The position numbers were made by a program, and so were the translations under genes. The notes under the pieces were generated by a model. That model searched no databases and was not told the DNA's origin. It saw only the letters and a program-made list of their open reading frames with translations. A DNA stretch of 64,000 nt from an uncultured bacterium (GTDB taxonomy: Bacteria; Auribacterota; Tritonobacteria; UBA1439), in contig CAYWRA010000002.1 in assembly GCA_964460305.1 (NCBI GenBank), positions 3,089-67,088 of the forward strand, written 5' to 3'. Shown here piece after piece: positions 1 through 53,690 of the stretch (within the stretch, counting starts at the first letter, position 1; the number at the start of each line of letters is the position of its first letter).

Positions 1-132
1 CATATTTCTGAGATCCTCGCGATCAGGATTATGGATAGATCATACTCTTGGCCAGAATGTTACGCAATATGACAGCGATGTAGATTAAAGTGCCGAATTG
101 CGCAGAGTTTTCTTGGCTTAGCCCACTGGATA

Positions 133-219
133 GGCGGTGGCGCCTTTATACTGCTACACCCCCACCCTCTGCATGTCTCGGGAGTCATGCCCGGCCCCCC
201 GCGTATTGCCCCCGGTCCG
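133..219 (+). ncRNA. Conserved ~90-nt structured motif, copy 1 (candidate cis-regulatory RNA or repeat)
   Basis: The core ggcg..tggcgccttta..ccccaccc..tgcatgtctcggg.g.catgcc.ggcccccgcgt.ttgcc..ccgt recurs at 2886-2974 in the same orientation. Both copies lie in 5' regions of + strand genes. Confidence 0.3.
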
Positions 220-406
220 TGAGGATGGGGATTTGCTCCGTATCGGGTAACGATAGTGCCCCCGCTACCAAAATGAGGGCATTGGATTGATATCTCGGGC
301 CCTTTTTCTTTCATTTTAACCTGGTTCCGCTTCCATCCCTATTTCCATTTGCATATTTTGCGTGTCACCGGTATTCTTTTAGATGACATGGGCCGGGAGG
401 AGTTTT

Positions 407-1186
407 ATGAAAAAACTCGCAGGTGACAAAATGAATATAAGAATTTTAGTGGCAACTTTGGCGGGTATGCTGTTGGGGACGCACGCGTTTTGTGCCGGCG
501 ATGGACCGGCGGTCGGCGTCATCGAATGGCAACCGAATATACCCCGCGAACGCAAAACCGACTACGACAAAACCGACTTCTGGGCGGCAATCGCTTTTTC
601 ACCCTCCACGGGCAAGTACGGTCCCACCTGCTATCATACGAGCCAGGACAATGCGGTCCGCATCGCCCGCGAGAACTGCAATGCCAAAGACGCCCGCCCC
701 ATGGTGCTTTGCTGCAACGGCTGGTGCGCTCTGGCGCTTGGCCAGCCGGCAGGCAAGGGAGAATATGCCTGGGGAGTAGGATGGGGGCCCGACCAGGAGA
801 CAGCCGAGCAATACGCGCTTGAGAACGCGCGCCAGCGGATGAGCGGGGCAAAAGTCGTTTACAGCGTCTTCGCCCGCGACATACAGTCTACAGGAGTGAT
901 CGCCTACTCGCCCACGACGGGCAAATGGGGTTATTCATTCGGCTACGGCCGCGGTGATGTTACCCGGGCGCTTCAGTTCTGCGAAGACCCGCAGGCCAAG
1001 GTCATCGTTTCGCCGACGTCATGCTGCTGGATGGCGCTGGCGCTGGGCGACGACAAGAGCGCGTACGGCTACGGCTACGCCGGCAACCGCGCCGATGCCG
1101 AGCGCAACGCGCTGGATGAATGTCACAAACGGACCAAAAACGCGAAGGTCGCCGTCAGCTTCTGCACCAACGGCGTGGTGCATTGA
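407..1186 (+). CDS. Secreted DUF4189-like repeat protein with three Cys-rich repeats
   Basis: An N-terminal signal peptide, MKKLAGDKMNIRILVATLAGMLLGTHAFCAG, is present. There are three repeats of the pattern G(V/A)IAYSP(S/T)TGK(Y/W)G...C...(L/C)C(N/T)GWCALALG, ending in WMALALG. A GGAGGAG ribosome-binding site lies 5 nt upstream of the ATG at 407. Confidence 0.55.
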   Translation: MKKLAGDKMNIRILVATLAGMLLGTHAFCAGDGPAVGVIEWQPNIPRERKTDYDKTDFWAAIAFSPSTGKYGPTCYHTSQDNAVRIARENCNAKDARPMVLCCNGWCALALGQPAGKGEYAWGVGWGPDQETAEQYALENARQRMSGAKVVYSVFARDIQSTGVIAYSPTTGKWGYSFGYGRGDVTRALQFCEDPQAKVIVSPTSCCWMALALGDDKSAYGYGYAGNRADAERNALDECHKRTKNAKVAVSFCTNGVVH

Positions 1187-1340
1187 AGGGCTCTGGGAGC
1201 AATCCCGGGGCCCTTTTCTCTTCCTGCCAAAATGCAGGGCTCATATGCAAATCTGTCGGTGTATAATAACGGTCTGGCCGTTACCTAAATAGGCGCCCCA
1301 AGGCGGTTCAGGGTCATCCACCGATTAACTGCACAACCAT

Positions 1341-2675
1341 TTATAGTGACCTGGGTGTGATCGTTCTTCCACTCACGGTCCTGTAAGCCCATTCCATGGC
1401 AAAACATACGGGCATGAGCGCGAACATGGTGATAAAAGCAGGCTTGGAATTCTGGTAAATGTAATAGCTCAGGATCGCGGCCATGCCAAAACAGGCCAGG
1501 ATCGACAAAGAGACCAGAGTTTTGTCGGCGCCCGTCTCAGAAATGACCCGCAGATGAGCTATCCCCACGGCGCCATAGATGAGAAGGAAAGCGCCGCTCC
1601 CCATCATCGCCACGCCTGACAGATCAAAGAACAGTATGAAAGATAACACCATGATCGCCGTGATCATCAGTCCGCCGGATCCGCCCTGCCATATATTTCT
1701 TGAGAAAACAGGCGGAAGCTCGCCGTCCCTTGCCAGCATATAGCTCACATTCGCCGATCCGAACAATGTGGCGTTAATGGCGGAAGCCGTAGAGAAAAGC
1801 GCCCCCAGGGCGATCAAGCGGAACCCGAGAGTCCCGAGGAACGGTTTTGCCGCCTCCGCCAGGGCATAGTCTTTGGCGGCGACGATCGCGTTGATGTGCA
1901 GATTTCCGATCACGGCGACGGAAACCAGGATGTAAATGAGGACCACGCTAAAAACACTCAGGTAAAGAGCGCGGGGCAAGAGTTTCCGTGGATCGTCCAT
2001 ATCTTCGGCTGCGTTTGTGATCAGGCCGAACCCTTCATATCCGATAAAGAGGACTCCTGCGCCGAACAAAATCCCCGAGAACTGGGGCCAGCTCGAAGGG
2101 GATAAATAAGCCGGGTGGATAAAAAATAAACCGACGACCGAAAACACCAGGAGGATGGCGATCTTGATCGCCACAATGATGGACTCGGAACGCCCGACCA
2201 GGCCCGCGCCTATGAAATTGACTGCCGTGAAGAGAACGACAATGCCCGTCGCGACGACCTTTCCGAATACGGATGAACCATATTGCGGGAAAAAAGTTTT
2301 GAAGTAGCCGGCGAATCCATGCGCATAGAGCGCCAGGGCGATGATGTATCCGATCCACATGTAAATGTTGATTCCACCGCTTAAAACGCCATCTCCAAAA
2401 CCCTGAACGAGAAATTCGACTGGGCCGCCCGCGGAAGGATAACGCGCTCCCAGTTTGGCGTAAGAATAGGTGGCAAGCAGAGCAACCACGCCTCCGATAA
2501 TAAACGAAAACCACAGGGCCGTCCCCGATGTCTGGGCCACGACACCGAGGATCGAAAATATGCCGGCGCCGACCATGCCGCCTATGCCTATAGACATAGC
2601 GGCGAGTAGGCCGATCTGCCCGCGTTTGGGACTGCCCGGGGATTTTGGCGAAGGTATGGCTGTGGGTTCTGTCAT
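1341..2675 (-). CDS. APC-family amino acid permease
   Basis: The 444-aa product is predicted to have 12 TM helices. The N-terminal GLLAAMSIGIGGMVGAGIF segment is typical of amino-acid/polyamine/organocation transporters. Confidence 0.7.
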   Translation of the reverse strand: MTEPTAIPSPKSPGSPKRGQIGLLAAMSIGIGGMVGAGIFSILGVVAQTSGTALWFSFIIGGVVALLATYSYAKLGARYPSAGGPVEFLVQGFGDGVLSGGINIYMWIGYIIALALYAHGFAGYFKTFFPQYGSSVFGKVVATGIVVLFTAVNFIGAGLVGRSESIIVAIKIAILLVFSVVGLFFIHPAYLSPSSWPQFSGILFGAGVLFIGYEGFGLITNAAEDMDDPRKLLPRALYLSVFSVVLIYILVSVAVIGNLHINAIVAAKDYALAEAAKPFLGTLGFRLIALGALFSTASAINATLFGSANVSYMLARDGELPPVFSRNIWQGGSGGLMITAIMVLSFILFFDLSGVAMMGSGAFLLIYGAVGIAHLRVISETGADKTLVSLSILACFGMAAILSYYIYQNSKPAFITMFALMPVCFAMEWAYRTVSGRTITPRSL

Positions 2676-2766
2676 GTTATCTTTTTCCTCACGGATTCGT
2701 CAAATCAACCATCATACATGTAACAGTCCTAGCGGCGCCAGCATCAATTTCCTACATTATACCTCT

Positions 2767-2848
2767 AGCCCGATCTATTCATCAACTTTGATCGGTCGAT
2801 AAGTGCTTACTGTGGCGCAAATAGTTAATCAAAATTGTCACATTTGAC
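2767..2848 (+). repeat. REP/MITE-like repeat family A, copy A1
   Basis: The element agcccgatctattcatcaactttgatcggtcgataagtgcttactgtggcgcaaatagttaatcaaaattgtcacatttgac is shared with copies at 12551, 24774 (-), 38903, 47437 and 48648 (-). Confidence 0.85.
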
Positions 2849-2885
2849 TTTCCAACACCTGCCGGTAGTATCCCTCCGCATCCAT

Positions 2886-2974
2886 GGGGGCGGTTTGGGC
2901 ATAAGTGGCGCCTTTACCCCACCCGATGCATGTCTCGGGCGCCATGCCTGGCCCCCGCGTTGCCACTGGGCCGT
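2886..2974 (+). ncRNA. Conserved ~90-nt structured motif, copy 2 (candidate cis-regulatory RNA or repeat)
   Basis: This is homologous to 133-219. It lies in the divergent intergenic region upstream of rex. Confidence 0.3.
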
Positions 2975-2999
2975 TTCACTATGCATGGAAATATATTTA

Positions 3000-3017
3000 T
3001 TGTGAATGTTTTCACAA
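3000..3017. promoter_or_regulatory. Candidate Rex operator (TTGTGAATGTTTTCACAA)
   Basis: This is a perfect 18-bp palindrome matching the Rex consensus TTGTGAAnnnnTTCACAA. It lies 64 bp upstream of the rex start codon. Confidence 0.6.
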
Positions 3018-3042
3018 AATAATGTTGCCATTCATGGGGACA

Positions 3043-3058
3043 GTGATATACTTATCAC
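3043..3058. promoter_or_regulatory. Second palindrome GTGATATACTTATCAC with adjacent TTGTGAA half-site
   Basis: The palindrome lies just upstream of the rex ATG. A TTGTGAAAAAAGG half-site sits at 3062-3074. Confidence 0.35.
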
Positions 3059-3080
3059 TTATTGTGAAAAAAGGAACAAT

Positions 3081-3719
3081 ATGCTTGCCAAACGAAATTG
3101 TGTTATCCGGCTTTCTCGATATAAGAGCGTGCTTTATCGCTTGCGTGACCTGGGTTTTGTGCGGGTCTTTTCGGATAATCTGGGCGACGCCATAGGGGTT
3201 ACGGCATCGCAGGTGAGAAAGGATTTCTCCGTCTTCGGCATTACCGGCAACCGCAAAGGCGGTTATGAGGTATCTTATCTGATTGAAAGATTGAACGAGA
3301 TCCTGGGCAAAAACAGGGTCGAGAAGGTGATCATCGTTGGCGCCGGCCATCTCGCTTACGCGCTTATGCACTACGGCGGTTTCGAAAAGGAGGGAATAAA
3401 GATAGAGGCCGCTTTTGACATAGATCCCTCCAAATATGACCGGCAAGCTCCGATCCCCGTCCTGCCGGTGGAGGAGATGAAGGGATTTGTTTCCTCAAGG
3501 AACATAAAGGTGTGCGTCCTGGCCGTCCCCGAGGTTGCGGCCCAGCGCGCGGCCGACAGCATTTTCGCCGCCGGGATCAAGGGGATCCTGAATTTTGCGT
3601 CGATTATGCTGAAGGCGCCGGACGATTGCTCCGTCACCAACGTCAATCTTGAGATGGAGTTGGAGAACCTCATCTATTTCATGAATCTTCTAGGGCAGGA
3701 AAAGAAAAAGGAACAGTGA
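3081..3719 (+). CDS. rex: Redox-sensing transcriptional repressor Rex
   Basis: The product contains an N-terminal winged helix, VIRLSRYKSVLYRLRDLGF, and a Rossmann GxGxxG motif, VIIVGAGHLAYAL. The stop codon overlaps the hydB start. Confidence 0.8.
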   Translation: MLAKRNCVIRLSRYKSVLYRLRDLGFVRVFSDNLGDAIGVTASQVRKDFSVFGITGNRKGGYEVSYLIERLNEILGKNRVEKVIIVGAGHLAYALMHYGGFEKEGIKIEAAFDIDPSKYDRQAPIPVLPVEEMKGFVSSRNIKVCVLAVPEVAAQRAADSIFAAGIKGILNFASIMLKAPDDCSVTNVNLEMELENLIYFMNLLGQEKKKEQ

Positions 3720-5884
3720 TGACGACCCCACTCGACATCGTAAAGAGGAAACGCGCGGAGGCGGTTGACCGCATACACAGCAGGGGTTATCTCGCCCAGA
3801 GGCGCGTGCACGTCGGCATGGCAACGTGCGAGATAGCGGCGGGCTCGCAGGACGTGATGGACGTTTTTCAGGAAGCGATCAAGAAGGGGCTGACCGGCGT
3901 CCACATAAGCCAGAAAGGGTGCGCGGGCCGGTGTAATTACGAGCCGACCGTGGAGGTGATCGAGGACGGCAAGCTCCCGGTGAAATACGGACGGGTCACG
4001 AGCGAGATGGCCCGCCAGATCGTCGAGCGGCACCTGAAAAAGGGCGAGATCATCAAGGAATGGCTGATCGGCTGGACGGGAAAAAGAAAAAGGGCGGCGC
4101 GGGAATACGTCATTACCCTCTGTGAAGGACCTTCCTGCATTCGCCAGAAATTACGGTATTTAAGGACCGCCATCGAAAAAGAGATCGCCGGACTGGGTTT
4201 GTCGGATAAGGTACGCCTCAGCATATCCGGATGTTTGGGCATGTGCAAACATGGGCCGGCGATGATCATTAATCCGCCCCATACCGTCTACGGCAACGTT
4301 AAGGCGGAAGACGTCCCGGAACTCATAAGATCGCACATCCTGAATAAAAAGCCGCTCACCCGCCTTATGGTCGAAGAGGAGCACCTGTGCAACAAATTCC
4401 TGAGGGTATTCGGGGACGTCAATTTTTTCGGCAAGCAGATGCGCATTGTGCTTCGGAATTGCGGAATCATAGATCCGGAGAATATCGATGATTATTTATC
4501 GGTACGGGGATATGAGGCGCTTGCAAAGGTGTTGACAAGGATGTCTCCGCAGCAGGTCATCGCGGCGGTGAAGAAATCGTGCCTGCGCGGAAGGGGCGGG
4601 GCCGGCTATCCCACGGGGGCCAAATGGGAGCTCGCCGCCAGTGGAGAGAGCAAAGAGAGATTCGTCATCTGCAACGCCGATGAGGGCGATCCGGGGGCGT
4701 TCATGGACAGGAGCGCCATAGAAGGGGATCCCCACACGATTATAGAAGGGATGATCATAGGGGGCTATGCGGTGGGGGCATCCAGAGGAATCGTTTACAT
4801 CCGGGCGGAGTATCCGCTGGCGGTCAAGAGGCTGCAGATGGCCATCGCCGACGCGAAGCGCGAGGGCTTCCTCGGGGAAAACATCCTGGGCGCCAATTTT
4901 TCGTTCACCATCGAGATACGGTTGGGAGCGGGCGCTTTTGTATGCGGCGAGGAGACGGCGTTGATCCATTCGATCGAGGGGCATCGCGGCATGCCGCGGC
5001 CGCGCCCGCCTTACCCGTCGGTGCAGGGGCTGTTCGACAAGCCGACGCTGATCAACAACGTCGAGACCTGGGCGAACGTCCCGGTGATCATTATCGAGGG
5101 GGCTGAATGGTTCAGCTCCATCGGCACGCAAAAAAGCAAGGGCACAAAGGTATTCGCCCTGGCGGGCAAAATCAATAATACGGGGCTTGTGGAAGTGCCG
5201 ATGGGGACGACGCTTCGTGAAATCATCTACGATATCGGCGGCGGGATGCCGGATGGAAAGAAATTCAAGGCGGTTCAAACCGGAGGCCCTTCAGGGGGGT
5301 GCCTCTCGGAGGAATATCTGGATACCCCGATCGATTATGAATCGCTGGCCAAGGCGGGCTCGATCATGGGGTCGGGGGGGATGATCATCATCGATGAAGA
5401 TTCGTGCATGGTAAACATCGCAAAATTTTTTTTGGAGTTTACCCAAAATGAATCCTGCGGCAAATGCACCCCCTGCAGGGAGGGGACGAAAAGGATGCTT
5501 GAGATCCTCACCCGCATCACCGAGGGGAAGGGCGAGGAGGGAGACGTCGGGAAGCTGGAGCGGCTCGGCATGATGATCAAGAAGGCGTCCCTCTGCGGCT
5601 TGGGGCAATCGGCGCCGAACCCGGTCTTAAGCACCATCAAAAACTTCCGCGCGGAGTACGAGGAGCACATCAAGGACAAGAGGTGCCGGGCGCATTATTG
5701 CGATGCGCTTCTGGAATACGAAGTGAACGATTCATGCGTCGGATGCGGGGCATGCAGAAAGGCGTGCCCGTCCGGGGCCGTTTCGGGAGCCCCGAAGAGC
5801 AGGCATTCGATCGACAAGGCGAAATGCATCCGGTGCGGCGTTTGTTATAAAAAATGCAAATTCAAAGCGATCGACAGGCGGTAG
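3716..5884 (+). CDS. hydB: [FeFe]-hydrogenase NADH-binding flavoprotein subunit (NuoF-like HydB)
   Basis: The product has N-terminal thioredoxin-like 2Fe-2S domains, a NuoF 51-kDa core with the SLCGLGQ region, and C-terminal 2x[4Fe-4S] ferredoxin motifs, CVGCGACRKACP and CIRCGVCYKKC. Confidence 0.8.
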   Translation: MMTTPLDIVKRKRAEAVDRIHSRGYLAQRRVHVGMATCEIAAGSQDVMDVFQEAIKKGLTGVHISQKGCAGRCNYEPTVEVIEDGKLPVKYGRVTSEMARQIVERHLKKGEIIKEWLIGWTGKRKRAAREYVITLCEGPSCIRQKLRYLRTAIEKEIAGLGLSDKVRLSISGCLGMCKHGPAMIINPPHTVYGNVKAEDVPELIRSHILNKKPLTRLMVEEEHLCNKFLRVFGDVNFFGKQMRIVLRNCGIIDPENIDDYLSVRGYEALAKVLTRMSPQQVIAAVKKSCLRGRGGAGYPTGAKWELAASGESKERFVICNADEGDPGAFMDRSAIEGDPHTIIEGMIIGGYAVGASRGIVYIRAEYPLAVKRLQMAIADAKREGFLGENILGANFSFTIEIRLGAGAFVCGEETALIHSIEGHRGMPRPRPPYPSVQGLFDKPTLINNVETWANVPVIIIEGAEWFSSIGTQKSKGTKVFALAGKINNTGLVEVPMGTTLREIIYDIGGGMPDGKKFKAVQTGGPSGGCLSEEYLDTPIDYESLAKAGSIMGSGGMIIIDEDSCMVNIAKFFLEFTQNESCGKCTPCREGTKRMLEILTRITEGKGEEGDVGKLERLGMMIKKASLCGLGQSAPNPVLSTIKNFRAEYEEHIKDKRCRAHYCDALLEYEVNDSCVGCGACRKACPSGAVSGAPKSRHSIDKAKCIRCGVCYKKCKFKAIDRR

Positions 5885-12472: not shown

Positions 12473-12550
12473 GCGAGCACTACACCGGTATTGTACGTCC
12501 ATTATCGATCGCCCTCCCCCTATTTCTCCCATCCGAACAATCGCTGATTT

Positions 12551-12652
12551 AGCCTGATCTATTCATCAACTTTGCTCGGTTGATGAATATCCTACCGTAG
12601 CGCAAATAGTCACGCAAAACTGCCACATTCCGCGCCAGACTAGTCGGTGCGG
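12551..12652 (+). repeat. Repeat family A, copy A2, with ccgcgccagactagtcggtgcgg palindromic extension
   Basis: agcctgatctattcatcaactttgctcggttgatgaatatcctaccgtagcgcaaatagtcacgcaaaactgccacattccgcgccagactagtcggtgcgg. Confidence 0.8.
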
Positions 12653-12690
12653 GGCTTAACTACAAGTCAAGACCGCCCCTGCCGTCATAC

Positions 12691-24372: not shown

Positions 24373-24773
24373 TCTATAACATGCACTCATGACGGCAGTC
24401 GATCTCCGAAGGTGGGATTGTATCATAGCCTTCCACAACAGAGGAAGGCAGGATACGGGAATCCACCCGGAGAGTGGGAAAATAGTGATGTTTACCACAG
24501 ATTAACGCAGATGGATAAACGGACGACAGGGAGCACAGCGACACTGGTTCTCACGAAGAGTAAAAGAGGGAAAGAGAAGAGCATAAATTCTTGCCCTCTT
24601 TTACTCTGTGTGAAAAATTGCACGGAGGATCAGGACAATCAGGTGCTCAAGAACCTCCCCCGAAGGGGCCCCTTCGGGGTGCGCAAATCTCGTGTAATCT
24701 CGTGGTTTCAAATTGAACAGTCCCGATTTGTAGCTGAAAACCAGCGACAAGAAACTGTTGTTGCTGCTTTAAC

Positions 24774-24873
24774 CCCGCACCGACTAGTCTGGTGCGGAAT
24801 GTTGGCAGTTTTGCATAACTATTTACGCTACAGTAAGTATTTATCGGCCGATCAAAGTTGATGAATAGATCAG
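24774..24873 (-). repeat. Repeat family A, copy A3 (reverse orientation)
   Basis: This is the reverse complement of the A2 copy, including the ccgcaccgactagtctggtgcgg palindrome. Confidence 0.8.
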
Positions 24874-25177
24874 GTTAACAGCCTTTGTGGTGAGGCTCGG
24901 CGTGAGATGCTTCGTCGTCCCACACAACGGGACTCCTCGCAATGACATGTGCAACATCTTCTGCTCCCCGTGATGCCTTTTTTCTCTTTTACTCTTTGTA
25001 AAGACAGGGGGTTCTTATAATCTGCGTTCATCCTCGGCAAATAACTTCTTCTCTGTGAATTCTCTCCATGCTCTCCGTGCCTCCGTGGTGAAATATGGAA
25101 GCCACAGTTCCCGTCCGCAAGAAACCGTTTTTGCCGCCCCAGCGGCCTTTGTGTTACAATCGCCGACAGGCAATGGA

Positions 25178-26832: not shown

Positions 26833-26984
26833 GAATTCGCCAGGCATAAGCACTCCTTATAAATGACAAATCCCAAATTCCGGACCCCAAACGACAAACA
26901 ACAAAACGTCACTGATTACGACTGACACAGCTACCCCGGCGCTTTGTCATTTGAAATTTGGTATTTAGTATGTGTCATTTGGAA

Positions 26985-27350
26985 TCAGTGTTTTTCCTCC
27001 AACACCTCAACCCACGTCACCGTGGGAAATTCCTCCCCAGCCGCCAGGCGATGATCGATCTCCATCCGCATCCCCGGACGCAACTCTTCGATTCGCAACG
27101 GGCGCATACCCCGAAAAACCAGCGTCGCGTCATCATCGAGGTGAAACGCGCCGACGGCGCCCGACGACTTTTCGATCGTGCAGATCCGCTTTTCTCGATC
27201 GATCGAAAGAAGCGTGCCCGTGCACGTCTTCATTGCCGCCGATCGGCCTTGATCCTGGCCCGAGTAGAGAACAACTGCAGGAAAGGTCAGAAACAGCAAC
27301 GCACCCATCTCCACGGGGAGGCGCCAACGGCCGGGAATTATCCTCATGCC
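26985..27350 (-). CDS. Hypothetical signal-anchored small protein
   Basis: The ORF is downstream of the DksA-like gene, with a 7-bp overlap. Confidence 0.3.
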   Translation of the reverse strand, partial: GMRIIPGRWRLPVEMGALLFLTFPAVVLYSGQDQGRSAAMKTCTGTLLSIDREKRICTIEKSSGAVGAFHLDDDATLVFRGMRPLRIEELRPGMRMEIDHRLAAGEEFPTVTWVEVLEEKH

Positions 27351-31739: not shown

Positions 31740-31818
31740 CAAAATTCAAATGACAAAACACAATGAGGTTTTGTCATCTTGCCATTTGTAATTCATTTGT
31801 CATTTGGTATTTGTCATT
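31726..31818 (+). repeat. Repeat family B (AAATGAC/GTCATTT heptamer arms with a gacaaaacacaatgaggttttgtc core hairpin), copy B2
   Basis: Other copies lie at 41704-41790, 46918-46985 (-), 49330-49420 and 53600-53690. A degenerate copy lies at 26868-26975. Confidence 0.8.
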
Positions 31819-31842
31819 GGGGATATAGATCGGGACAACGTC

Positions 31843-38358: not shown

Positions 38359-38862
38359 TCAGATTCCTCCCTCGCCCTCGATCCGTATCTCCCTGTAGCG
38401 ATCCGGATTGATGCGGTGGCTCAGACCCTCGAGCGCCATAAGCGTCAAAAGGGCAAGGGCGGTTACCTCCGTCGAGATAAGGTAATGCCCCAAGCCCAGC
38501 GTAATGCCTATGGCCGACACGATCCATATGGAAGCCGCCGTCGTCAGCCCCAGGACGAAATTCCTCCCCTTTATAATGGTGCCCGCGCCGAGGAACCCGA
38601 TGCCGGTGATGATGCCGGCGGCGGCCCGCGCGGGGTCCATCCGTATAGCGGATTCGGCCCCTGGTTGCATCGTCGCATAGAGCTTCTGGAATGCAAGGAT
38701 GATGGCCGCCGAACCCATGCATACCAGTATATTGGTCCTGGTGCCAGCGGCCCTCCCGTGAGCTTCCCGCTCGGTGCCGATAAGCCCGCCGAAAATCAGG
38801 GCAAGGACGAGTCTCAGCAGCGTTTCCCATTCGCTTATTATCATAGTGCTCACATTGGTCAT
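38359..38862 (-). CDS. MgtC/SapB-family membrane protein
   Basis: The product has the motif LIFGGLIGTEREAHGRAAGTRT. Confidence 0.6.
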   Translation of the reverse strand: MTNVSTMIISEWETLLRLVLALIFGGLIGTEREAHGRAAGTRTNILVCMGSAAIILAFQKLYATMQPGAESAIRMDPARAAAGIITGIGFLGAGTIIKGRNFVLGLTTAASIWIVSAIGITLGLGHYLISTEVTALALLTLMALEGLSHRINPDRYREIRIEGEGGI

Positions 38863-38902
38863 AATCTCACCTCCCAAATTCCAGTCCCTTCAGGGATAAC
38901 CT

Positions 38903-38978
38903 TAGCCCGATCTATTCATCAACTTTGATCGGCCGATAAATACTTACTGTAGCGCAAATAGTTAATCAAAATCGTCGC
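38903..38978 (+). repeat. Repeat family A, copy A4
   Basis: agcccgatctattcatcaactttgatcggccgataaatacttactgtagcgcaaatagttaatcaaaatcgtcgcatt. Confidence 0.8.
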
Positions 38979-38979
38979 A

Positions 38980-41556
38980 TTATCGCTCGGTCTGCACAGA
39001 GGGGTTTGACCGTTTTGACGACCTAACTCCCGCGAAAAATCTCTCCATCTCCGCGAGCGTTCCACGCGCGTCGAGGCGGCAGATGGAAGTGGCGGGGAGC
39101 GAGTCCAAAAAGAGTTTCCCATACCTCCTGCTGTGTACGCGGGAATCAAGGATGAGCACCGCGCCGATATCCTCCCGGTGCCGTATCAATCGACCGAATC
39201 CCTGCCTGAATTTAATCACCGCCTGGGGGACGCTGTATTCCAGGAACGGATCCCCGCCGGCAAGCTCTAGCGCCTCCACCCGCGCCTGCTGGATCGGTTC
39301 GTCCGGGACCCTGAACGGCAGCCGCGTCAGGATCACGCACTGCAACGCCTCTCCCCGCACGTCAACGCCCTCCCAGAAGCTGTCGGTGGCGAAAAGGACC
39401 GATCCCTTCTCCCTCCTGAAACGGTTGAGTAGCGCGGTGCGGTTATCGGTCCCCTGCTTGAGCACGGTGAGCCCCGCACCCTCAAGATCGTTCGCCAGCC
39501 GCGCATACAGCTTCTCGAGCAATCTGTAAGATGTGAAAAGCACAAACGCGCTCCCCCGGCTGATCGCCACCGCCTGCCCAACCAACTCCGCCAGCATGTC
39601 TTCATAGCCTTCACTACCCGGTTCGGCAATTCCCCTCGGGGCGGCTACAAACGCCTGGGCGCCGTAGTCGAAGGGTGAGGGAAGGATGCAGCACTCCAGC
39701 TTGTCCTTCTCCGCCTCGCCCAGCCCCACGCGCGAGCGAAAATAATCGAACGCGCCCCCCACGGTGAGCGTCGCCGAGGTCATGATCACCGTGTCAAACC
39801 GTTCGTAGATTGCCTCGCGCATTCCCGCCGAGACATCAAGGGGGGCGGCGCAGAAGTTCAGCCTCTCCCACGCACCTTTGCCTTTGAGCTCAAGCCAGCG
39901 GCAGACTCCATCCCCTCCCTTCATAAAAAAGGTGAGGCACTCGACGTAATGCTCGACCCGTTGCCGCATCGAGCCGATTTCGACCATGGCGGACTCGACC
40001 ATTTTCTTGCGGCGCTCGGGAAGCGCGCCGAGAAGTTTCAGGAGATCCGCGAGTTTTTCCGAGAACGATCTGATGACGCCGAGCAGCTCTTTGAGAACGG
40101 GGCAAAGCGCCCCTTGCCAGAACGGCGAAGCGGCGATGTCCGGCGTAATCCTGAGGCTTCGGCCGTTCTCCCCATCCGCACCCTTGCACGCCATCTTCAA
40201 TTCCGCCGTGAGCCGGTCCATGGCGGCGGCGATCTTTTTCTCCGCGGCGAGCCGCTCGGGGATTATCGTATCCGTGATCGAATCGAGCGCTCCCGATATC
40301 CGCCCGCGATCCTCGCCATCGATCTCGGCGTGCAGCTTCGCACAGAGGAACGGGAGCAGTCCCCTGCCGGTCTCCCTCACGCCCTGAAGGCGACGCAATA
40401 TCCTGAGCAGGCCGTATTTCGAAACCTGGAAGCCGAAATACTCCGTGGCGACGTCCTCGACGTGCTGGGCCTCGTCTATGATAATCCTTTGGAACCGCGG
40501 AAGCACCGCCGGCCGATCATGGCCCTCCATGCGGCTGCGCACCGCAAGATCCGCCATTAGCAAATGGTGGTTTACCACAAGGACGTGGGCGCTTGAGGAT
40601 TCCCTCCTCGCCTTGTAGAAAAAGCATTCCGCGTAATGGGGGCAGTGCAGGCGCGTGCACTGGTCCGCCTCTGAGCAGACGCGCTCCCAGTTCTCCCTGC
40701 GCGGGATGAAGCTCAGGTCGGAAAGGCTCCCGTCTTTGGTTTTCTCCGACCACTGAAAGAGCTCGCACAACTCCTCCTGCCCGCCGGCGGCGAGAAGTAG
40801 CCTGTTCTCTTCTCGCGCAACGGCGAGCTTCCGCAGGCAGAGGTAGTTGCTCCGCCCCTTCACCAACACCGCCTTGCACTGGAGCCCCTTCAGCTTCTGT
40901 AGGAGCGGCAAGTCTTTCCCGATGAGCTGCTCCTGGAGATTGATGGTTTTTGTCGATATCACCACCCGCTCGTCGTTGTTGAGGCTCCACGCTATCGCGG
41001 GGATGAGATAGGCGAGGGATTTGCCCGTACCCGTGCCAGCCTCGATCAAGGCGATGCGGTCCTCGTTGAAGGCCTTCGCCACTTTCGCCAACATCGTCTG
41101 CTGCTCTTCACGGCACTCGAAGTCGGGAAGCTCCCTGCTTACGGGGCCGCCGGGACGGATATACGCGGCGAGCGCCTCGACGTCAAGCGGGGTTAGCTCC
41201 TCCTCCCGTGAGGGTTCCACGACGGGGTATACCCGCTCGACGTCATTATCGACGATGTAAAAACCACAGCCCCCGCCCCCCAGCTCGGACGCGACCGCGA
41301 GGTCGGCATTGGAAGGGGAGAGCGGCCCATCGGGATGGTTATGGATGACAACGTCGCCTAGTTCGACGCTTCTCGTAATGGCGGGAACGCACTCGCGGTC
41401 GCCCCTCGCGAGCACGGAAACGGTCCTTACGATAAGCCGGTCATCCGTCTTACCGAGGAAAAACACCTCGTTGCCGTCAGCCGCCTCTATCGACGACCGC
41501 ATTTCATCGACCGCGTCTGGATGGATGTACTCCGTGACCTCGATTGATTTCTTCAT
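38980..41556 (-). CDS. JAB/MPN-domain protein fused to an Fe-S Rad3/DinG-family DNA helicase
   Basis: The N-terminus carries the JAMM motif HNHPDGPLSPSNAD. The helicase part has Walker A TGTGKSLAY, the DEAH box IIDEAQH, and an Fe-S Cys cluster (C...CTRLHCPHYAEC). A C-terminal helicase domain follows. Confidence 0.65.
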   Translation of the reverse strand: MKKSIEVTEYIHPDAVDEMRSSIEAADGNEVFFLGKTDDRLIVRTVSVLARGDRECVPAITRSVELGDVVIHNHPDGPLSPSNADLAVASELGGGGCGFYIVDNDVERVYPVVEPSREEELTPLDVEALAAYIRPGGPVSRELPDFECREEQQTMLAKVAKAFNEDRIALIEAGTGTGKSLAYLIPAIAWSLNNDERVVISTKTINLQEQLIGKDLPLLQKLKGLQCKAVLVKGRSNYLCLRKLAVAREENRLLLAAGGQEELCELFQWSEKTKDGSLSDLSFIPRRENWERVCSEADQCTRLHCPHYAECFFYKARRESSSAHVLVVNHHLLMADLAVRSRMEGHDRPAVLPRFQRIIIDEAQHVEDVATEYFGFQVSKYGLLRILRRLQGVRETGRGLLPFLCAKLHAEIDGEDRGRISGALDSITDTIIPERLAAEKKIAAAMDRLTAELKMACKGADGENGRSLRITPDIAASPFWQGALCPVLKELLGVIRSFSEKLADLLKLLGALPERRKKMVESAMVEIGSMRQRVEHYVECLTFFMKGGDGVCRWLELKGKGAWERLNFCAAPLDVSAGMREAIYERFDTVIMTSATLTVGGAFDYFRSRVGLGEAEKDKLECCILPSPFDYGAQAFVAAPRGIAEPGSEGYEDMLAELVGQAVAISRGSAFVLFTSYRLLEKLYARLANDLEGAGLTVLKQGTDNRTALLNRFRREKGSVLFATDSFWEGVDVRGEALQCVILTRLPFRVPDEPIQQARVEALELAGGDPFLEYSVPQAVIKFRQGFGRLIRHREDIGAVLILDSRVHSRRYGKLFLDSLPATSICRLDARGTLAEMERFFAGVRSSKRSNPSVQTER

Positions 41557-41739
41557 GTTGTGGGAGCATTATAACACAACGTGCGCATGCGCCCGCCCGC
41601 GTTGGGAATTTGAACCATCTCTGGAAATGACGAATACCCCGCCTAACAACCGGCCTCGTCCCAAAGGGATCCCTTCGGGAAAGAGGCCCCTTTGGGGCGG
41701 GCAGGCAAATGACAAATGTCAAAACACAATGAGGTTTTG

Positions 41740-43344
41740 TCATTTGGTCATTTGTAATTCATTTGTCATTTGCGCTTTGGTATTTGTCATTATTTTGCCC
41801 CTGCACGCATCGCGATGCTGGACGAGCAGCGAATCGTCCAGGTATACCGGGTTCAGGCGCGCGGCCTTCTCATACGCCTCGATCGCCCTGCCGTACTCCC
41901 CCCTGGCCTCATAGACCATGCCGATGCCTATATACACGTTGGCCGAGTAAACGGCGTCGCGGGTCAGGCCCATCGCCCGATTGAATTCCCGGAGCGCCTC
42001 GTCATACCTGCCGGTCATGCGGTAGACGTTTGCAAGATTGTTGCGGGCGGAGGGAAAATCAGATCTGAGATTCACCGCCTGCATCAGCATCTCCTCCGCC
42101 TCCTCGTAACGGCCCCGTCGCATGTATACGATCCCAAGATTGTTGTAGGCATCGGCGCTTTCAGGGCTGTGTGCGATGACCGCCTCCCACAGCGTCGCGC
42201 TGTCACGCCAAACGGTATTCCGCGCCATCGTAAGGACGGCAAAAAGTGTGACGACCGCGCAGACAGCGGCAGCCCCCAGGCGGAAGCGAGGCCGCAGGAG
42301 ACCCGCCGCCGCGGCGTGCCCGCAGAGGAGACAAAGGGCGGCGCTTGGGAGATAGAGATACCGGTCGGCCTTTATCATGTTCACCGGGATGATCTGGAGC
42401 ACGGGTATGAGCGATACCGCGCCCCAGAAAAAGCAGAATGAGAACAGTCCCTTGCCCCGGCGCCTCGCGACCGCCGCAATGCACAGAGTAATTATCGCAA
42501 CAAGCGGGAAAAGGCACCGGATCTCCGTCGCCCGGGAGGGTAACTCCACCAGATAGAGAGAGGAGAGGTCGACGGGAAGGACAAGCATCCTGATGTAATC
42601 GCCCAGCACGACGCACATCGCGCGCATCGTGCCGTAGATGCTCCCGCCATGGTAGACAAAGCGCAAGTCTCTATGCGGATCCAGGAATATGGTGGCGATT
42701 GCGATGGGCAGAAGTGGCAGCGCGTAGGGGAACTTGTGCGGTATACTCCGCCCCAGGCCGATCCGCCGGCCATTACCGAGAACGTCGTATAGGATGAGCG
42801 CCAGAGGGAGTGTGATCATCAACGGTTTGGAACAGATGGTACAGAGGTAGAAACAGACGCTCAGGGAGAATAGCCCTCCCCCCCGTCTCTCCCGGCTTCG
42901 GACGTATGCCAGGAACGAGAGGAGATAAAAGAGCATTCCCAGGCCGTCCTTTCTGCTCGAGAGCCAGGCGACCGATTCCGCGTGCAACGGGTGTACCGCA
43001 AAGAGCGCCGCTGCCGCAAGGGCCGCCTCCACCTTGCCTATCATCTCTCCGCAGAGGAGGAAAAAGACGAGCACGACGAGCGCATAGATGAGCAGATCGG
43101 TTATGTGATACCCCACCGGGTTGAGTCTCCAGAAGAGATAATCGAGGCTATGGGAGATCACCGGCAGGGGGGGATAGCTTAAGTGATAATTCTTGATGAC
43201 GTGGGGGATGTCGAGCGTGCGGATGGCCTTGTTCCTGACGATGAGATGCTCATCGTCCCAATTGGTAAAATGATTGCCGAGAATGTTGGCGTAGACCACC
43301 AGTACCAGGGCAATCAGGCATAAAATCGCTATCCATGTCCTCAC
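41740..43344 (-). CDS. Polytopic membrane protein (PMT/TMTC-like glycosyltransferase fold) with C-terminal TPR repeats
   Basis: About 11 TM helices are predicted. The product has the TPR segments AEAYNNLGIVYMRRGRYEEAEEM and RNNLANVYRMTGRYDEA. The last ~15 codons read through a family B repeat. Confidence 0.5.
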   Translation of the reverse strand: MRTWIAILCLIALVLVVYANILGNHFTNWDDEHLIVRNKAIRTLDIPHVIKNYHLSYPPLPVISHSLDYLFWRLNPVGYHITDLLIYALVVLVFFLLCGEMIGKVEAALAAAALFAVHPLHAESVAWLSSRKDGLGMLFYLLSFLAYVRSRERRGGGLFSLSVCFYLCTICSKPLMITLPLALILYDVLGNGRRIGLGRSIPHKFPYALPLLPIAIATIFLDPHRDLRFVYHGGSIYGTMRAMCVVLGDYIRMLVLPVDLSSLYLVELPSRATEIRCLFPLVAIITLCIAAVARRRGKGLFSFCFFWGAVSLIPVLQIIPVNMIKADRYLYLPSAALCLLCGHAAAAGLLRPRFRLGAAAVCAVVTLFAVLTMARNTVWRDSATLWEAVIAHSPESADAYNNLGIVYMRRGRYEEAEEMLMQAVNLRSDFPSARNNLANVYRMTGRYDEALREFNRAMGLTRDAVYSANVYIGIGMVYEARGEYGRAIEAYEKAARLNPVYLDDSLLVQHRDACRGKIMTNTKAQMTNELQMTK

Positions 43345-43495: not shown

Positions 43496-44836
43496 CTACT
43501 CGATGGCTATTTCGATGGAATCAAGCGCGAGCGCATTCGCCGGCGAGGGAGCGGTCCCCTCCGGCATGAGGCCCGCATAGACCGTCCATGTCCCTGCCGG
43601 AACGTTCGCGGGCATGGACATATCGATAAGATCTTTCGTCACCGCCTGCTTCAAGCCGGGCACTCCCGCGACAAAAGCGCTGAGCCCCTTCACAAGCCCT
43701 TTCTGTGTGAGCGAGTAGACTACGCCAGGCCCCTTGAGTACGACGTAAGCGTCGAACGGCTGCGTGGTCGGCTGCACCGCAACAGAGAGGACGAACCTAT
43801 CGCCGGCGCCGAACGATGCGGCGTTTGCCACGATCCCGATCGCAGGCTGGACCGGGGCGATCTGGTATATGTCAGCCGGGGTCGGCCCTCCGAACTCATC
43901 TGCATAGGCCGCGGCGAGCTTCGCGGAAGTCCACGTGTCAGGCGCAAACGATTGCTCGCGCTTGTAGATCGCGAGGATGCTGAATCCGCCCGCGATGTCC
44001 GTGCTCAACGTGGCAAAACCCGTGAGGGGGGAGAGCCGGTATATCTTCCCGTGGTGATTGTCCGAGACATACAGGTCGCCGCTCGAATGCCAAGCCACGT
44101 CGACGCCCCCGTCAAGGATCGCGATCTGCTGGGCCTCTGAGGGAGTGAGCGCCGCGCCATGTGCGAGTGCGGACTCGAGATCCGTATGACCGAACTTGAA
44201 CAGCGTGAACGCGCCCGTATCGGGGATGGGCCACGTGTCGGTATTGCGCAGATAGTAGAGGTTCCCTTCGTCGTCAACGTCTATGCCGCCCGAATAGGTG
44301 TGATCGACCGATACCACCTCCGTGAGCGAGCGCGCCGCAACGTCGAGATAGTAGATCTTGTTGGTCGCGCCGGCCGGATTGGCGCTCACGTAGCAATGCG
44401 TCGAGTCGATGAACGCGAGGTCGTACGCGCCGTCGAAGCTGCCGGAAGCCGGGGTGAGCTCGGTTACGGCATACGGGCTGGAGAGATCCATGCGCCTCAC
44501 CTTGTAGGTGGAGCTCTCGCCGAAAAGCGCAAACGAGCCGTCGGGGCTCACCTTCACGAACGCCCCCCATACGTTCCCGCCGAAGTCATACTTTTTCTCC
44601 ACGCCGGCGGGGGCGCCGTCGTCATCGGCGTCGACTACTCCGATGTAGCTGTTCACGGCGCCGGTCGTATCCACGTACATCCCGATGATGTCGCCGTTCG
44701 GCAGATAATCGAAACCCCCGGCGAAATTCTGGCCGAGCGTCTCCGCCTCGTACCCCGAGGGCATCTGGATCGCCCCCTCGGTCATCGTCGCTGCCATTAC
44801 GCACGCTAGTGCGCCGCCAATCAAACATCTTCTCAT
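43496..44836 (-). CDS. Secreted beta-propeller-like hypothetical protein
   Basis: The product has the signal peptide MRRCLIGGALACVMAATMTEGA. Its beta-rich segments are repeated. Confidence 0.4.
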   Translation of the reverse strand: MRRCLIGGALACVMAATMTEGAIQMPSGYEAETLGQNFAGGFDYLPNGDIIGMYVDTTGAVNSYIGVVDADDDGAPAGVEKKYDFGGNVWGAFVKVSPDGSFALFGESSTYKVRRMDLSSPYAVTELTPASGSFDGAYDLAFIDSTHCYVSANPAGATNKIYYLDVAARSLTEVVSVDHTYSGGIDVDDEGNLYYLRNTDTWPIPDTGAFTLFKFGHTDLESALAHGAALTPSEAQQIAILDGGVDVAWHSSGDLYVSDNHHGKIYRLSPLTGFATLSTDIAGGFSILAIYKREQSFAPDTWTSAKLAAAYADEFGGPTPADIYQIAPVQPAIGIVANAASFGAGDRFVLSVAVQPTTQPFDAYVVLKGPGVVYSLTQKGLVKGLSAFVAGVPGLKQAVTKDLIDMSMPANVPAGTWTVYAGLMPEGTAPSPANALALDSIEIAIE

Positions 44837-45364
44837 TCCGTTCTCCTCTCTTTTCGTTTTTTCCAGGGTGTCTATGTGAACCCCGGAGCGGTCGGCCGCA
44901 GACAACAAAAAAGCCAGCTCCTCAAGGTTTAAGAAGAACTGGCTTCATCCATACCGGCTTCTCCCACCCCGAAGAAGATTCTCCCTGAGGTGTCCTGGCT
45001 TGTGGCATTAAATGATCAGCGGCCTTCCCAGAGCAGCGACCCTTCGATCCACTGATCCAGTGACCGGCTTACTACGGCAAAAAGTTTAAGGTATAAAGGA
45101 ACCGGCTTTAAACTTTAACTTTAAGCTGTTTTTTCCGCCACTTACAGTTGCGGGGGCAGCAGCGGTTTTTCACCGCTTTCCCTCATAAGACGTATTTCAA
45201 AGATCGGCGCTATTATACGCTCCCCCGGAGGGGTGTCAAATGAATTATGCATAAAACATCAAAGTACGCGATAAACCGTAACCCATAAGCCGTAAGTGCT
45301 TTGATCCTATAGCATAAGGCTTACAATTTAAGGCATTCAGCGCCCTCGATCTGCCCTCGCAACT

Positions 45365-46917: not shown

Positions 46918-46985
46918 GAATGCCAAATACCAAAATGACAAAACCTCATTGTGTTTTGCCATTTGACATTTGGTATTTGCCATTG
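46918..46985 (-). repeat. Repeat family B, copy B4 (reverse orientation)
   Basis: gacaaaacctcattgtgttttgcc is the reverse complement of the family B core. Confidence 0.7.
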
Positions 46986-47395: not shown

Positions 47396-47436
47396 CTTGT
47401 CATACCGGGGTAGTATACAATAAATTATTGCATATT

Positions 47437-47510
47437 AGCCTGATCTATTCATCAACTTTGATCGGCCGATAAATACTTGCTGTAGCGCAAATAGTTAATC
47501 AAAATTGTCA
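47437..47510 (+). repeat. Repeat family A, copy A5
   Basis: agcctgatctattcatcaactttgatcggccgataaatacttgctgtagcgcaaatagttaatcaaaattgtca. Confidence 0.8.
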
Positions 47511-47521
47511 GAGCCGCCCCA

Positions 47522-48576: not shown

Positions 48577-48647
48577 AGAAACAGCCTAGCCTGCCATAGT
48601 CCCGGATTTTGCCTCGAAGAGATCGAGAAAAAAGGGACGGTTCTGGC

Positions 48648-48749
48648 CCCGCACCGACTAGTCTGGTGCGGAATGTTACAATGTTGATTAACTATTTGCG
48701 CTACAGTAAATATTTATCGGCCGATCAAAGTTGATGAATAGATCAGGCT
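48648..48749 (-). repeat. Repeat family A, copy A6 (reverse orientation, with the ccgcaccgactagtctggtgcgg palindrome)
   Basis: Together with A5, this is an inverted pair bracketing the rhodanese-DoxX pair. Confidence 0.8.
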
Positions 48750-49332: not shown

Positions 49333-49420
49333 TGACAATGTCAAATGACAGATGACAAAACACAATGAGTTTTTGTCATCGGGGCATTTGTAATTCATTT
49401 GTCATTGGGTATTTGTCATT
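49330..49420 (+). repeat. Repeat family B, copy B5
   Basis: aatgacaatgtcaaatgacagatgacaaaacacaatgagtttttgtcat...tttgtcattgggtatttgtcattt. Confidence 0.8.
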
Positions 49421-49429
49421 TATGCAACG

Positions 49430-52257: not shown

Positions 52258-53604
52258 ATGCGAAAGATCAAAATTCCAGCATGCATGCTAGTTTTTGTGA
52301 TGCTTCTTGTTGAGTCTCTACAGGCCGAGTGGGTCACGGACAAGAAGGTGGATGAGACGCTCAAACGCGTGGCGGCCTTCGCTCGCTGCGAGAAGGAACT
52401 CGCGACGTCAAAATCCGAAAGCCAGCGGCAGGCGCTCCGGGGACAGCTCGATCGGATGAAGAGAGATCTCACGCGCGAACGGATCGACTACGGGAGCTTC
52501 ATCGGCATCCGCGGCCAGGCTGAGGACATCCAGGGAGACTGGTTCTTCGATGGGCAGTGGATCGCGAACAGCGTCTACTGGAGGATATTCCGCCTCTTCA
52601 ACCTGCCGAGGAACCTGCGCCGCCTAGTGGGCCGTCCCGCTCGCGCGAGCGATCTGACGGCAAATGGCGGAATCCCCGACTCGGCGTTCTTCTTCAATAC
52701 CGACTTACGCGCCATCACGCCCGGCATCTTAAGGGAGCAGGACGAGGCCATACGCCCGCGCGGGAAAATCACGATCACACGCAAGAAGCAGGAGGGCCAG
52801 TCCAAGGGCTTCTATGGCATGGACAGCCGCGGCGTCGAGTACATCATTATCGTCGATCCGCCGGGGATGGAAGAGCAGGTCACGTCAGCGGAAGTGATCG
52901 GCTCCACGCTAATGCGGATGGCAGGCTATAACGTCGCCGGGAGCGCCATCGTCACGATAGAAGGGACTGCCAATCCCGAGTTCGACGGCCGGCGCGGAGT
53001 GGCCACGAAACTCGTCAAGGGGTATAAGGGCCACTGGACTTACCGCGCGTTCGAGGACCGGCGGGAGATGCGCGCGGGCATGGTCTTCGCCGCCTGGATC
53101 CACAACACCGACTGGCTGGACCACAACACCGGGATCAGCGTGATCGAGGTTGACGGAATCCCTCTCACCCGCTACTACGTCTTCGACTTCGGTGGATCGC
53201 TCGGTAGCTGGAACATACGCACCAAGGAGCCGCGGGACGGCTGGGAGCATTACGTCAGCTTCCACGAGTTTTTCCTCTGGCCGATTGCGCGTCCCCTCGA
53301 ACTTGCTGGGCTTGTCAGGAAACCGTACGCCGCCAGCGGCGCTCAGTACAGCGAGGCCGTGGGTTACTTCGACAGCAACTTCCGCCCTGACCGCTACAGG
53401 CCGAACTATCCTAACATGGCCTGGGCGGAGATGACGGCCGAGGACGGCCGCTGGGCCGCGGGCGTGATCGCCGGCTACAGCGAGGAGCAGATCCGGACCG
53501 CCGTGGATCTCGCCCGCTACACTCGCGCCGAGGACGCTGATTACGTATATAAGACGCTGCTCGCAAGACGGCAGAGGATACTGGATCATTATAACCCGAA
53601 ATGA
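52258..53604 (+). CDS. Secreted hypothetical protein with protein-kinase-like catalytic signature
   Basis: A signal peptide is present. The product has WIHNTDWLDHN (an HxD...N catalytic-loop-like motif), followed ~25 aa later by DFGGS (a DFG-like motif). Confidence 0.35.
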   Translation: MRKIKIPACMLVFVMLLVESLQAEWVTDKKVDETLKRVAAFARCEKELATSKSESQRQALRGQLDRMKRDLTRERIDYGSFIGIRGQAEDIQGDWFFDGQWIANSVYWRIFRLFNLPRNLRRLVGRPARASDLTANGGIPDSAFFFNTDLRAITPGILREQDEAIRPRGKITITRKKQEGQSKGFYGMDSRGVEYIIIVDPPGMEEQVTSAEVIGSTLMRMAGYNVAGSAIVTIEGTANPEFDGRRGVATKLVKGYKGHWTYRAFEDRREMRAGMVFAAWIHNTDWLDHNTGISVIEVDGIPLTRYYVFDFGGSLGSWNIRTKEPRDGWEHYVSFHEFFLWPIARPLELAGLVRKPYAASGAQYSEAVGYFDSNFRPDRYRPNYPNMAWAEMTAEDGRWAAGVIAGYSEEQIRTAVDLARYTRAEDADYVYKTLLARRQRILDHYNPK

Positions 53605-53690
53605 CAAATGACGAAACACTATGAGGTTTTGACATTTGGTCATTTGTAATTCATTTGTCATTTGTGCTTTGTCATTTGTCATTTGTCATT
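53600..53690 (+). repeat. Repeat family B, copy B6, with four tandem TGTCATT heptamers
   Basis: aatgacaaatgacgaaacactatgaggttttgacat...tttgtcatttgtgctttgtcatttgtcatttgtcatt. Confidence 0.8.

Follow-up and report, generated by a model that had tools for sequence, protein, structure and literature searches.

The stretch of DNA analysed here (hereafter the window) comprises 64,000 nucleotides (nt) of contig CAYWRA010000002.1 from an uncultured bacterium of the GTDB lineage Auribacterota; Tritonobacteria; UBA1439, and it carries two similar intergenic elements on the + strand, copy 1 (133-254) and copy 2 (2886-2974). Copy 1 is located within a 705-nt gap between two divergent genes, a Metallophos gene on the - strand just left of the window, which was read from contig L017 extending past the window start, and a DUF4189 gene on the + strand (407-1186). 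Copy 2 is located within a 405-nt gap, also divergent, between an amino-acid permease gene (- strand, 1341-2675) and rex (+ strand, 3081-3719), where it is placed between a repeat of the D3 family adjoining the permease start and the rex control region. The genes between both copies are DUF4189, which encodes a secreted protein, and the inverted permease gene. The closest Rex homologues with an organism name belong to Candidatus Omnitrophota. Our favoured reading, to which we assign a probability of roughly 45%, is that the pair represents a passive, lineage-specific, non-coding repeat flanking DUF4189, the window copies of which were kept alike by recombination.

An earlier sequence-only reading had described two similar stretches of ~90 nt in one orientation. 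This description holds, as the repeat finder, MAFFT, blastn and a pattern count agree on it, and the consensus string and coordinates given at that time were accurate. In the 64-kb window the repeat finder grouped 160-199 and 2917-2956 as the two-copy family D13 (40 nt, 88% identity), while in MAFFT and blastn the similarity extends to about 133-219 and 2886-2974 with three or four indels. A direct blastn comparison of copy 1 with copy 2 showed 82% identity over 61 nt (E 1e-10). Copy 2 is without ~10 nt of copy 1 (TATACTGCTA), has ~12 extra nt further upstream and differs by small indels of 1 and 2 nt. The core pattern GCATGTCTCGGGNGNCATGCC has exactly two matches in the window, both on the + strand, where 0.01 would be expected, and at least two matches were obtained in 0 of 100 shuffles. 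The range 133-219 is correct as the part common to both copies, but copy 1 reaches to ~254 when it is compared with the copies of other genomes. Copy 1 thus has the whole family core of ~120 nt, the last third of which is missing from copy 2, where the first ~90 nt only are retained. In fifteen same-strain contigs from the PRJEB14718 groundwater-trench metagenomes the copies are identical, and these contigs are therefore uninformative on variation.

The element recurs in related genomes, contigs of which were chosen via DUF4189 proteins 82% (L027 group) and 71% identical to that of the window. Since profiles containing their own targets are circular, the family test was redone with disjoint sets. 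A search of ~110 kb with a profile built from the two L027 copies only ranked window 133-254 first (E 1e-5), followed by window 2875-2974 (E 0.0035) and L034 2361-2473 (E 0.007), each on the + strand. Moreover, copy 1 alone matches L027 420-541 (E 4e-5), and reciprocally profiles from the window copies, or from the L034 copy alone, recover the other copies. In L027 a copy upstream of DUF4189 (350-540; also present in L028-L033) is followed by DUF4189 (645-1400), a gene of 537 amino acids and a second copy (3595-3780), which is located 2.2 kb downstream of DUF4189 in a convergent gap, past the terminator of the next gene. The stretch 3659-3775 of this second copy follows the terminator and has no co-oriented gene downstream. 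In L034 the DUF4189 gene (1494-2258) is followed after 95 nt by a copy (2353-2490) just ahead of a BrkB-family gene; this downstream copy is the only clear one, and upstream of DUF4189 there is at most a degenerate trace. The window itself shows the order copy 1, DUF4189, permease, copy 2. All five copies lie on the DUF4189 strand, and in the contigs of related Omnitrophota the family was found solely beside DUF4189 genes. In two of the three genomes DUF4189, alone or together with one more gene, has a copy on either side; a downstream copy is present in all three, and the outer neighbours of the repeat-DUF4189 segment are different in each.

The search for further copies was negative both in the remaining ~61 kb of the window and in ~32 kb of sequence surrounding rex from five relatives. 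One close relative (L026, Rex 92% identical) has neither the motif nor the DUF4189-permease segment, and there the Metallophos gene and rex adjoin each other directly in divergent orientation. The gap between them holds ~270 nt of unrelated repeats and is therefore not a clean empty site. These repeats fill the Metallophos-rex gap of L026 (1367-1890) and include, for example, two copies of a TTCC..TTGTTTCTT..CTCTATT unit, which points to fast intergenic turnover in the clade. An ATATTTC/GAAATAT pair of short inverted repeats was considered as a clean empty-site junction at the edges of the DUF4189-permease segment; as it lies partly within sequence that also occurs in L026, it is not diagnostic. 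Wider scans with the window core TGCATGTCTCGGGNNNCATGCC, which covered 185,579 species genomes and JGI metagenomes, gave one and five matches respectively, all of them in unrelated coding DNA with dissimilar flanks, and this pattern was too specific. A scan of viral contigs with a degenerate pattern at the family level gave no match, and neither did blastn of the element against plasmids and phages.

Copy 2 had been described as lying upstream of rex-hyd. This is correct in the sense that it lies upstream of the rex promoter, but it is probably not within a rex leader. An alignment of five rex upstream regions, namely that of the window, two from relatives with a Rex 92-95% identical and two from relatives with ~75%, has invariant columns only from ~2993, and blastn conservation with L025 and L026 begins at 2993. 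The conserved rex control region (2993-3080, + strand) is accordingly outside the repeat. It contains four features that are invariant in the five genomes: a Rex box TTGTGAATGTTTTCACAA of the TTGTGAA-N4-TTCACAA form (3000-3017), a -35 box TTGCCA (3025-3030; TTGCCA/TTGACA across genomes), a TG-extended -10 box TATACT (3047-3052; TATACT/TATAAT across genomes) and, covering the ribosome-binding site, another Rex-like box (3059-3080). This promoter, TTGCCA-16-TG-TATACT, scored 10/12 matches in a promoter scan and is flanked by both Rex boxes, an arrangement which implies that the rex-hydrogenase operon would be autoregulated. Judged from the alignment, the rex promoter at 3025-3052 is the only promoter in this region that is backed by conservation, and copy 2, 51-139 nt upstream of the -35 box, is outside it. 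None of the aligned relatives, including those with a Rex 92-95% identical, has a counterpart of copy 2 upstream of rex, so that the motif is a lineage-specific feature and falls outside the rex control region. The Rex operator, a genuine conserved protein-binding site, shares the intergenic region with copy 2, but it is a separate element 26 nt downstream with no sequence in common with the motif. The motif is missing where the Rex operator is conserved.

The copies show no sign of a conserved RNA structure. A comparison of the whole window with Rfam 15 gave no match over either copy at the gathering score. When the region 1-3200 was searched at E<=10, there was no match over copy 1, and over copy 2 only sX13 (19.4 bits versus a gathering score of 50, E 1.3), a small RNA of Xanthomonas with C-rich loops. 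The copies in L027, L028 and L034 had no Rfam match either. Folds of the single ~90-nt copies on both strands were compared with dinucleotide shuffles and had z-scores of -0.31, +1.41, -1.33 and +0.43; full-length copies gave +1.35, -0.07 and +0.22. DNA folds of both strands of both copies were equally unremarkable (+0.65, +0.27, -0.10 and -0.01). The RNAalifold consensus of four diverged copies reached just -3.3 (+ strand), -4.3 (- strand) and -5.3 kcal/mol (full length) for GC-rich alignments of 150-240 nt, with many broken pairs. The GCATG...CATGC hairpin of the window copies is missing from the copies of other genomes. A long-range closing helix in the two L027 copies was considered and rejected, being unsupported by RNAalifold and by the other copies.

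The only Rfam family reaching its gathering score in the window is a cobalamin riboswitch (RF00174, 44970-45216, - strand, 57 bits, E 1.5e-11), which lies upstream of an open reading frame on the - strand (43496-44908). The terminator hairpin after DUF4189 (1154-1224, + strand) gave sub-threshold matches to BjrC68 (26 bits versus a gathering score of 39) and to ctRNA_p42d; these are generic terminator resemblances and not small RNA genes.

According to the favoured reading, the ancestral layout would have been a repeat, DUF4189 and a second repeat in direct orientation, and the second repeat would later have been separated from DUF4189 by the insertion of other genes. Truncation of this downstream repeat in the window lineage would have given copy 2, now at the far edge of the DUF4189-permease segment beside the rex promoter region. 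The direct repeats could have been used as a substrate for homologous recombination, and the core may then have been homogenised between them via gene conversion or partial re-duplication. Copy 1 is the full-length copy on the upstream side and the positional equivalent of the upstream copy in L027, where DUF4189 is 82% identical. The element would have neither an RNA function nor any control over rex, being a leftover of the duplication and insertion history of the DUF4189 segment.

Several observations are consistent with this scenario. Copy 2 is far closer to copy 1 (~89% over 70 aligned nt) than to either L027 copy (~71%), for which gene conversion or partial duplication would be the simplest cause. 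An origin of copy 2 from a downstream repeat would fit the block starting at 2842, the first 26 nt of which are 85% identical to L027 1445-1470 (blastn, E 0.001 in a small database), just downstream of the DUF4189 gene of L027, and the L034 copy directly behind DUF4189. Moreover, copy 1 and its positional counterpart in L027 are 66% identical over their best 101 nt, which is no better than the 70% at four-fold degenerate sites of the adjacent DUF4189 genes of the window and L027, so that no purifying selection is visible. The truncation of copy 2 and the degenerate state of the upstream trace in L034 also fit unselected DNA.

Some points weigh against this reading. The substitutions between copies are non-random with respect to a three-base phase, which neutral decay would not predict. 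Over 185 positions the L027 copies have diverged by 33% with zero indels, hinting at a constraint on length. All five copies share the strand of DUF4189, and in three cases a promoter-like -10 box or the start of a gene follows soon after the copy, which a regulatory DNA site could account for as well. Besides, the comparison rests on four genomes, and the wide genome and metagenome scans used an over-specific pattern.

The phase of the substitutions was most evident between the two L027 copies, which align without gaps over 185 nt at 67% identity and have 30, 18 and 13 mismatches in the three phases. In one + frame 17 of the 44 changed codons are synonymous (p about 0.001 by position shuffling), and in the - frame with the same third positions 16 are (p about 0.003). 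For window copy 2 and the upstream L027 copy, 9/14 changed codons are synonymous, a value matched in 0 of 1000 shuffles, and the synonymous excess is also significant for window copy 2 versus the L027 copies. In tblastx the two favoured frames scored 68-78 bits versus 29-38 bits for the others. A stop codon (TAA, TGA or TAG) of the - frame is found at an equal position in four of the five copies. Comparisons with the L034 copy revealed no periodicity, and copy 1 versus copy 2 favours a different frame. These phased substitutions are possibly a trace of coding ancestry or a small-sample effect; they are not evidence of a gene.

On the basis of the phased mismatches, the synonymous excess, the frame preference in tblastx and the shared stop of the - frame, the element could be, or recently have been, coding, either as a tiny gene or as the relic of a gene end that was duplicated with the DUF4189 segment. 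We consider this unlikely, as no frame is open with a start codon and a ribosome-binding site in all copies and the frames are interrupted by a +1 shift in copy 1, a TAG in the + frame of the upstream L027 copy and - frame stops inside the conserved stretch in both L027 copies. The source pipelines called no gene over any copy, the predicted peptides have the high content of Arg, Pro, Ala and Gly that GC-rich non-coding DNA would give, and searches of Pfam, NCBIfam and PHROGs gave no match, tblastn against plasmids giving only hits with E>=2. A word search in 5.8 billion proteins was also negative; it was queried with another + frame of copy 1, that of the peptide PHP[LM]HVSG[VA]MPGP... noticed between copies 1 and 2, which is not the frame favoured by the other copies. 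No parent gene was detected by tblastx among the compared loci, and an identity of 13 nt with a gene of 380 amino acids upstream in L028 is in a different frame and was judged to be due to chance. The sequence-only reading had proposed a structured RNA or a protein-bound element. The first of these would be a folded RNA acting in cis, or else a small RNA, with the + strand as the transcribed sequence. What remains of this interpretation is a non-chance element that recurs in related genomes in constant orientation relative to DUF4189; the structured RNA or 5' leader is very improbable. The strand is constant and, as in the leader RNAs and riboswitches of Rfam, two of the five copies lie 5' of co-oriented genes and the core is C-rich (GC skew -0.23 to -0.28 in two copies), which makes an unstructured C-rich RNA conceivable. 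A promoter-like TTGACT-16-TAGTAT (2844-2871, + strand, 9/12 matches in the promoter scan) ends 15 nt before copy 2 and partly recurs in L027, so that copy 2 would be transcribed if this site were active. Downstream of copy 1, and likewise of the L034 copy, there is a terminator-like hairpin with a U-run. The hairpin after copy 1 is weak (275-280/299-304 and 284-287/292-295, then a T-run, within 275-312, + strand; pair list of the minimum-free-energy fold of 65-310), was not called a terminator by a simple scan and precedes a candidate DUF4189 promoter, TTGCAT (349-354) and TATTCT (372-377) on the + strand with a 17-nt spacer and 7/12 matches, which was assigned by reading the sequence only. 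However, the copies have no Rfam family, no fold more stable than shuffles and a consensus structure of just -3 to -5 kcal/mol, copy 1 and the L027 copies are not preceded by a recognisable promoter, and copy 2 is outside the rex transcription unit predicted from conservation.

Sequence blocks that are conserved in constant orientation without a conserved fold would also be expected of a protein-bound upstream DNA site, at which an activator, a repressor or a nucleoid protein acts on the adjacent promoters of DUF4189 (copy 1), rex (copy 2) and the BrkB-family gene (L034). The rex -35 box is 51 nt past the end of copy 2, the upstream L027 copy ends ~20 nt before a perfect TATAAT that is itself 77 nt ahead of the DUF4189 start, and the two large indels that distinguish the window copies (~10 and ~12 nt) correspond to roughly one helical turn, so that the blocks would stay on the same face of the helix. 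Such a site is nevertheless improbable. The relatives with a Rex 92-95% identical keep the Rex boxes and the promoter and have nothing at the position of copy 2, the L027 copy at 3595-3780 has no co-oriented gene downstream, copy 2 is without the last third of the core, and the divergence of the element is about neutral. Neither dyad nor direct-repeat half-sites common to the whole set of copies are obvious; copy 1 has a near-palindrome, GCATGTCTCG/GGAGTCATGC, but in copy 2 it is decayed and the remaining copies do not have it. A sigma-54 promoter requires GG and GC elements exactly 10 nt apart. In copy 2 the spacing of TGGCCC-N5-TTGC (2948-2962) would fit, but the spacer of copy 1 is 3 nt longer (CGGCCC-N8-TTGC) and the GG/GC elements are missing from the copies of other genomes, so this candidate was rejected. 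Finally, the repeats may be recombination sites delimiting a mobile DUF4189 cassette, that is, direct repeats similar to attC or att sites on which a recombinase from another locus would act. In two genomes direct repeats enclose DUF4189, either by itself or with one further gene, and a downstream copy occurs in all three; the outer neighbours differ throughout, a close relative has the site without the segment, and in L028 DUF4189 is located beside AbiE and toxin-antitoxin genes. But there is neither a hairpin-forming imperfect palindrome nor R''/R' boxes, identity between the repeats is just 67-89%, with copy 2 truncated, there is no integrase or tRNA nearby, with the limit that the window was not searched for recombinases, and the 'empty' site of L026 is occupied by other repeats. 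Synteny around rex is poor in the clade, and varying neighbours are therefore not special. Taken together, we regard sites of this type as decidedly unlikely. An undescribed small gene cassette, in which direct repeats of ~120-190 nt around DUF4189 are kept in step by recombination, are subject to a codon-phased constraint and move between sites in Omnitrophota, appears to be a similarly long shot. The codon-phased constraint could in this case come from an encoded or ancestral tiny gene, or from a recombinase or another protein reading a three-base register.

Among known systems, attC sites and CALIN arrays share with the element direct repeats of ~60-140 nt that bracket a gene or cassette, diverged copies, the lack of an adjacent integrase and a variable neighbourhood. 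An attC site is an imperfect inverted repeat that folds as single-stranded DNA and has an R'' box (RYYYAAC) and an R' box (GTTRRRY) at its ends. Reading the ends of both copies revealed no GTTRRRY or RYYYAAC box, and with neither the single-stranded fold nor the boxes the element is not attC-like; furthermore, the bracketed genes have their own promoters and the permease gene is inverted. The attL/attR sites, including those of integrase-less elements mobilised in cis, are likewise direct repeats that end an accessory segment missing in a close relative, and coding-like substitutions could derive from the 3' end of a target gene. However, att cores are short and identical, whereas the repeats described here are long and 67-89% identical. 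ARAGORN found no tRNA or tmRNA gene in the window, and beside the copies there was neither an intact target gene nor an integrase to be seen. Repeats of the REP/BIME, ERIC and MITE type are also short, seemingly non-coding and intergenic, with copies that diverge within and between genomes and are in some cases truncated. In contrast to these, the element has no palindrome or hairpin, the window copies have neither terminal inverted repeats nor target duplications, and there are only two copies in 64 kb, which are tied to one gene and one orientation. A test for MITE or insertion-sequence ends found no inverted pair of at least 9 nt in window 40-330 and only an internal palindrome in 2845-3000. 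The L027 copies contain 10-nt inverted pairs of the kind expected by chance, which are not at homologous right-hand positions. The element thus behaves most like a low-copy, lineage-specific intergenic repeat.

Other repeats and neighbours were noted at these loci. In L027 a 61-nt inverted repeat (592-652/1400-1460, 72% complementary) flanks the DUF4189 coding sequence exactly from start to stop codon; it was not found in the window or in L034. In L028 (1-5025; also L029-L033) DUF4189 is located beside an AbiEi-family gene, a Gp49/HTH toxin-antitoxin-like pair and a HATPase gene, and these AbiE and toxin-antitoxin neighbours mark it as a defence or accessory neighbourhood. According to the repeat finder the window is unusually rich in intergenic repeat families. 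D3 repeats are present on the + strand at 2759-2844, 12549-12659, 38896-38981 and 47429-47514 and on the - strand at 24773-24874 and 48647-48747, with a further copy at L017 3793-3890. They are ~85-105 nt long with 80-92% identity to one another, often end in a hairpin CCGCACCAGACTAGTCGGTGCGG and have a -35-like TTGATG on the reverse strand. Several of them lie 20-90 nt from a gene start (permease, Metallophos and the genes at 38830 and 25055), and the copy at 12549 lies in a convergent gap. One D3 copy is found beside each copy of the motif, and both families are otherwise independent; the motif is not the tail of a D3 repeat, since other D3 copies are not followed by it. D2/D1 repeats with TTTGTCA/TTTGGTA heptamers (31741-31825, 41707-41791, 49343-49427 and 53599-53683; 80-92% over 85 nt) are each located at a gene boundary, and short units related to them occur at 26943-26993, 46948-46984 and elsewhere.

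As things stand, the significance of the repeat is small. A candidate riboswitch or leader RNA is removed from the rex-hydrogenase and DUF4189 loci, and the actual rex control region is the conserved block of Rex boxes and promoter at 2993-3080. What the repeat leaves is a footprint as of a cassette-like unit: it seems tied to the accessory gene DUF4189, brackets it in two of three genomes, and the segment is missing in a close relative. If the cassette-like layout or the phased divergence were confirmed on many copies, this would give new insight into how the little-studied and repeat-rich genomes of these Omnitrophota are rearranged.

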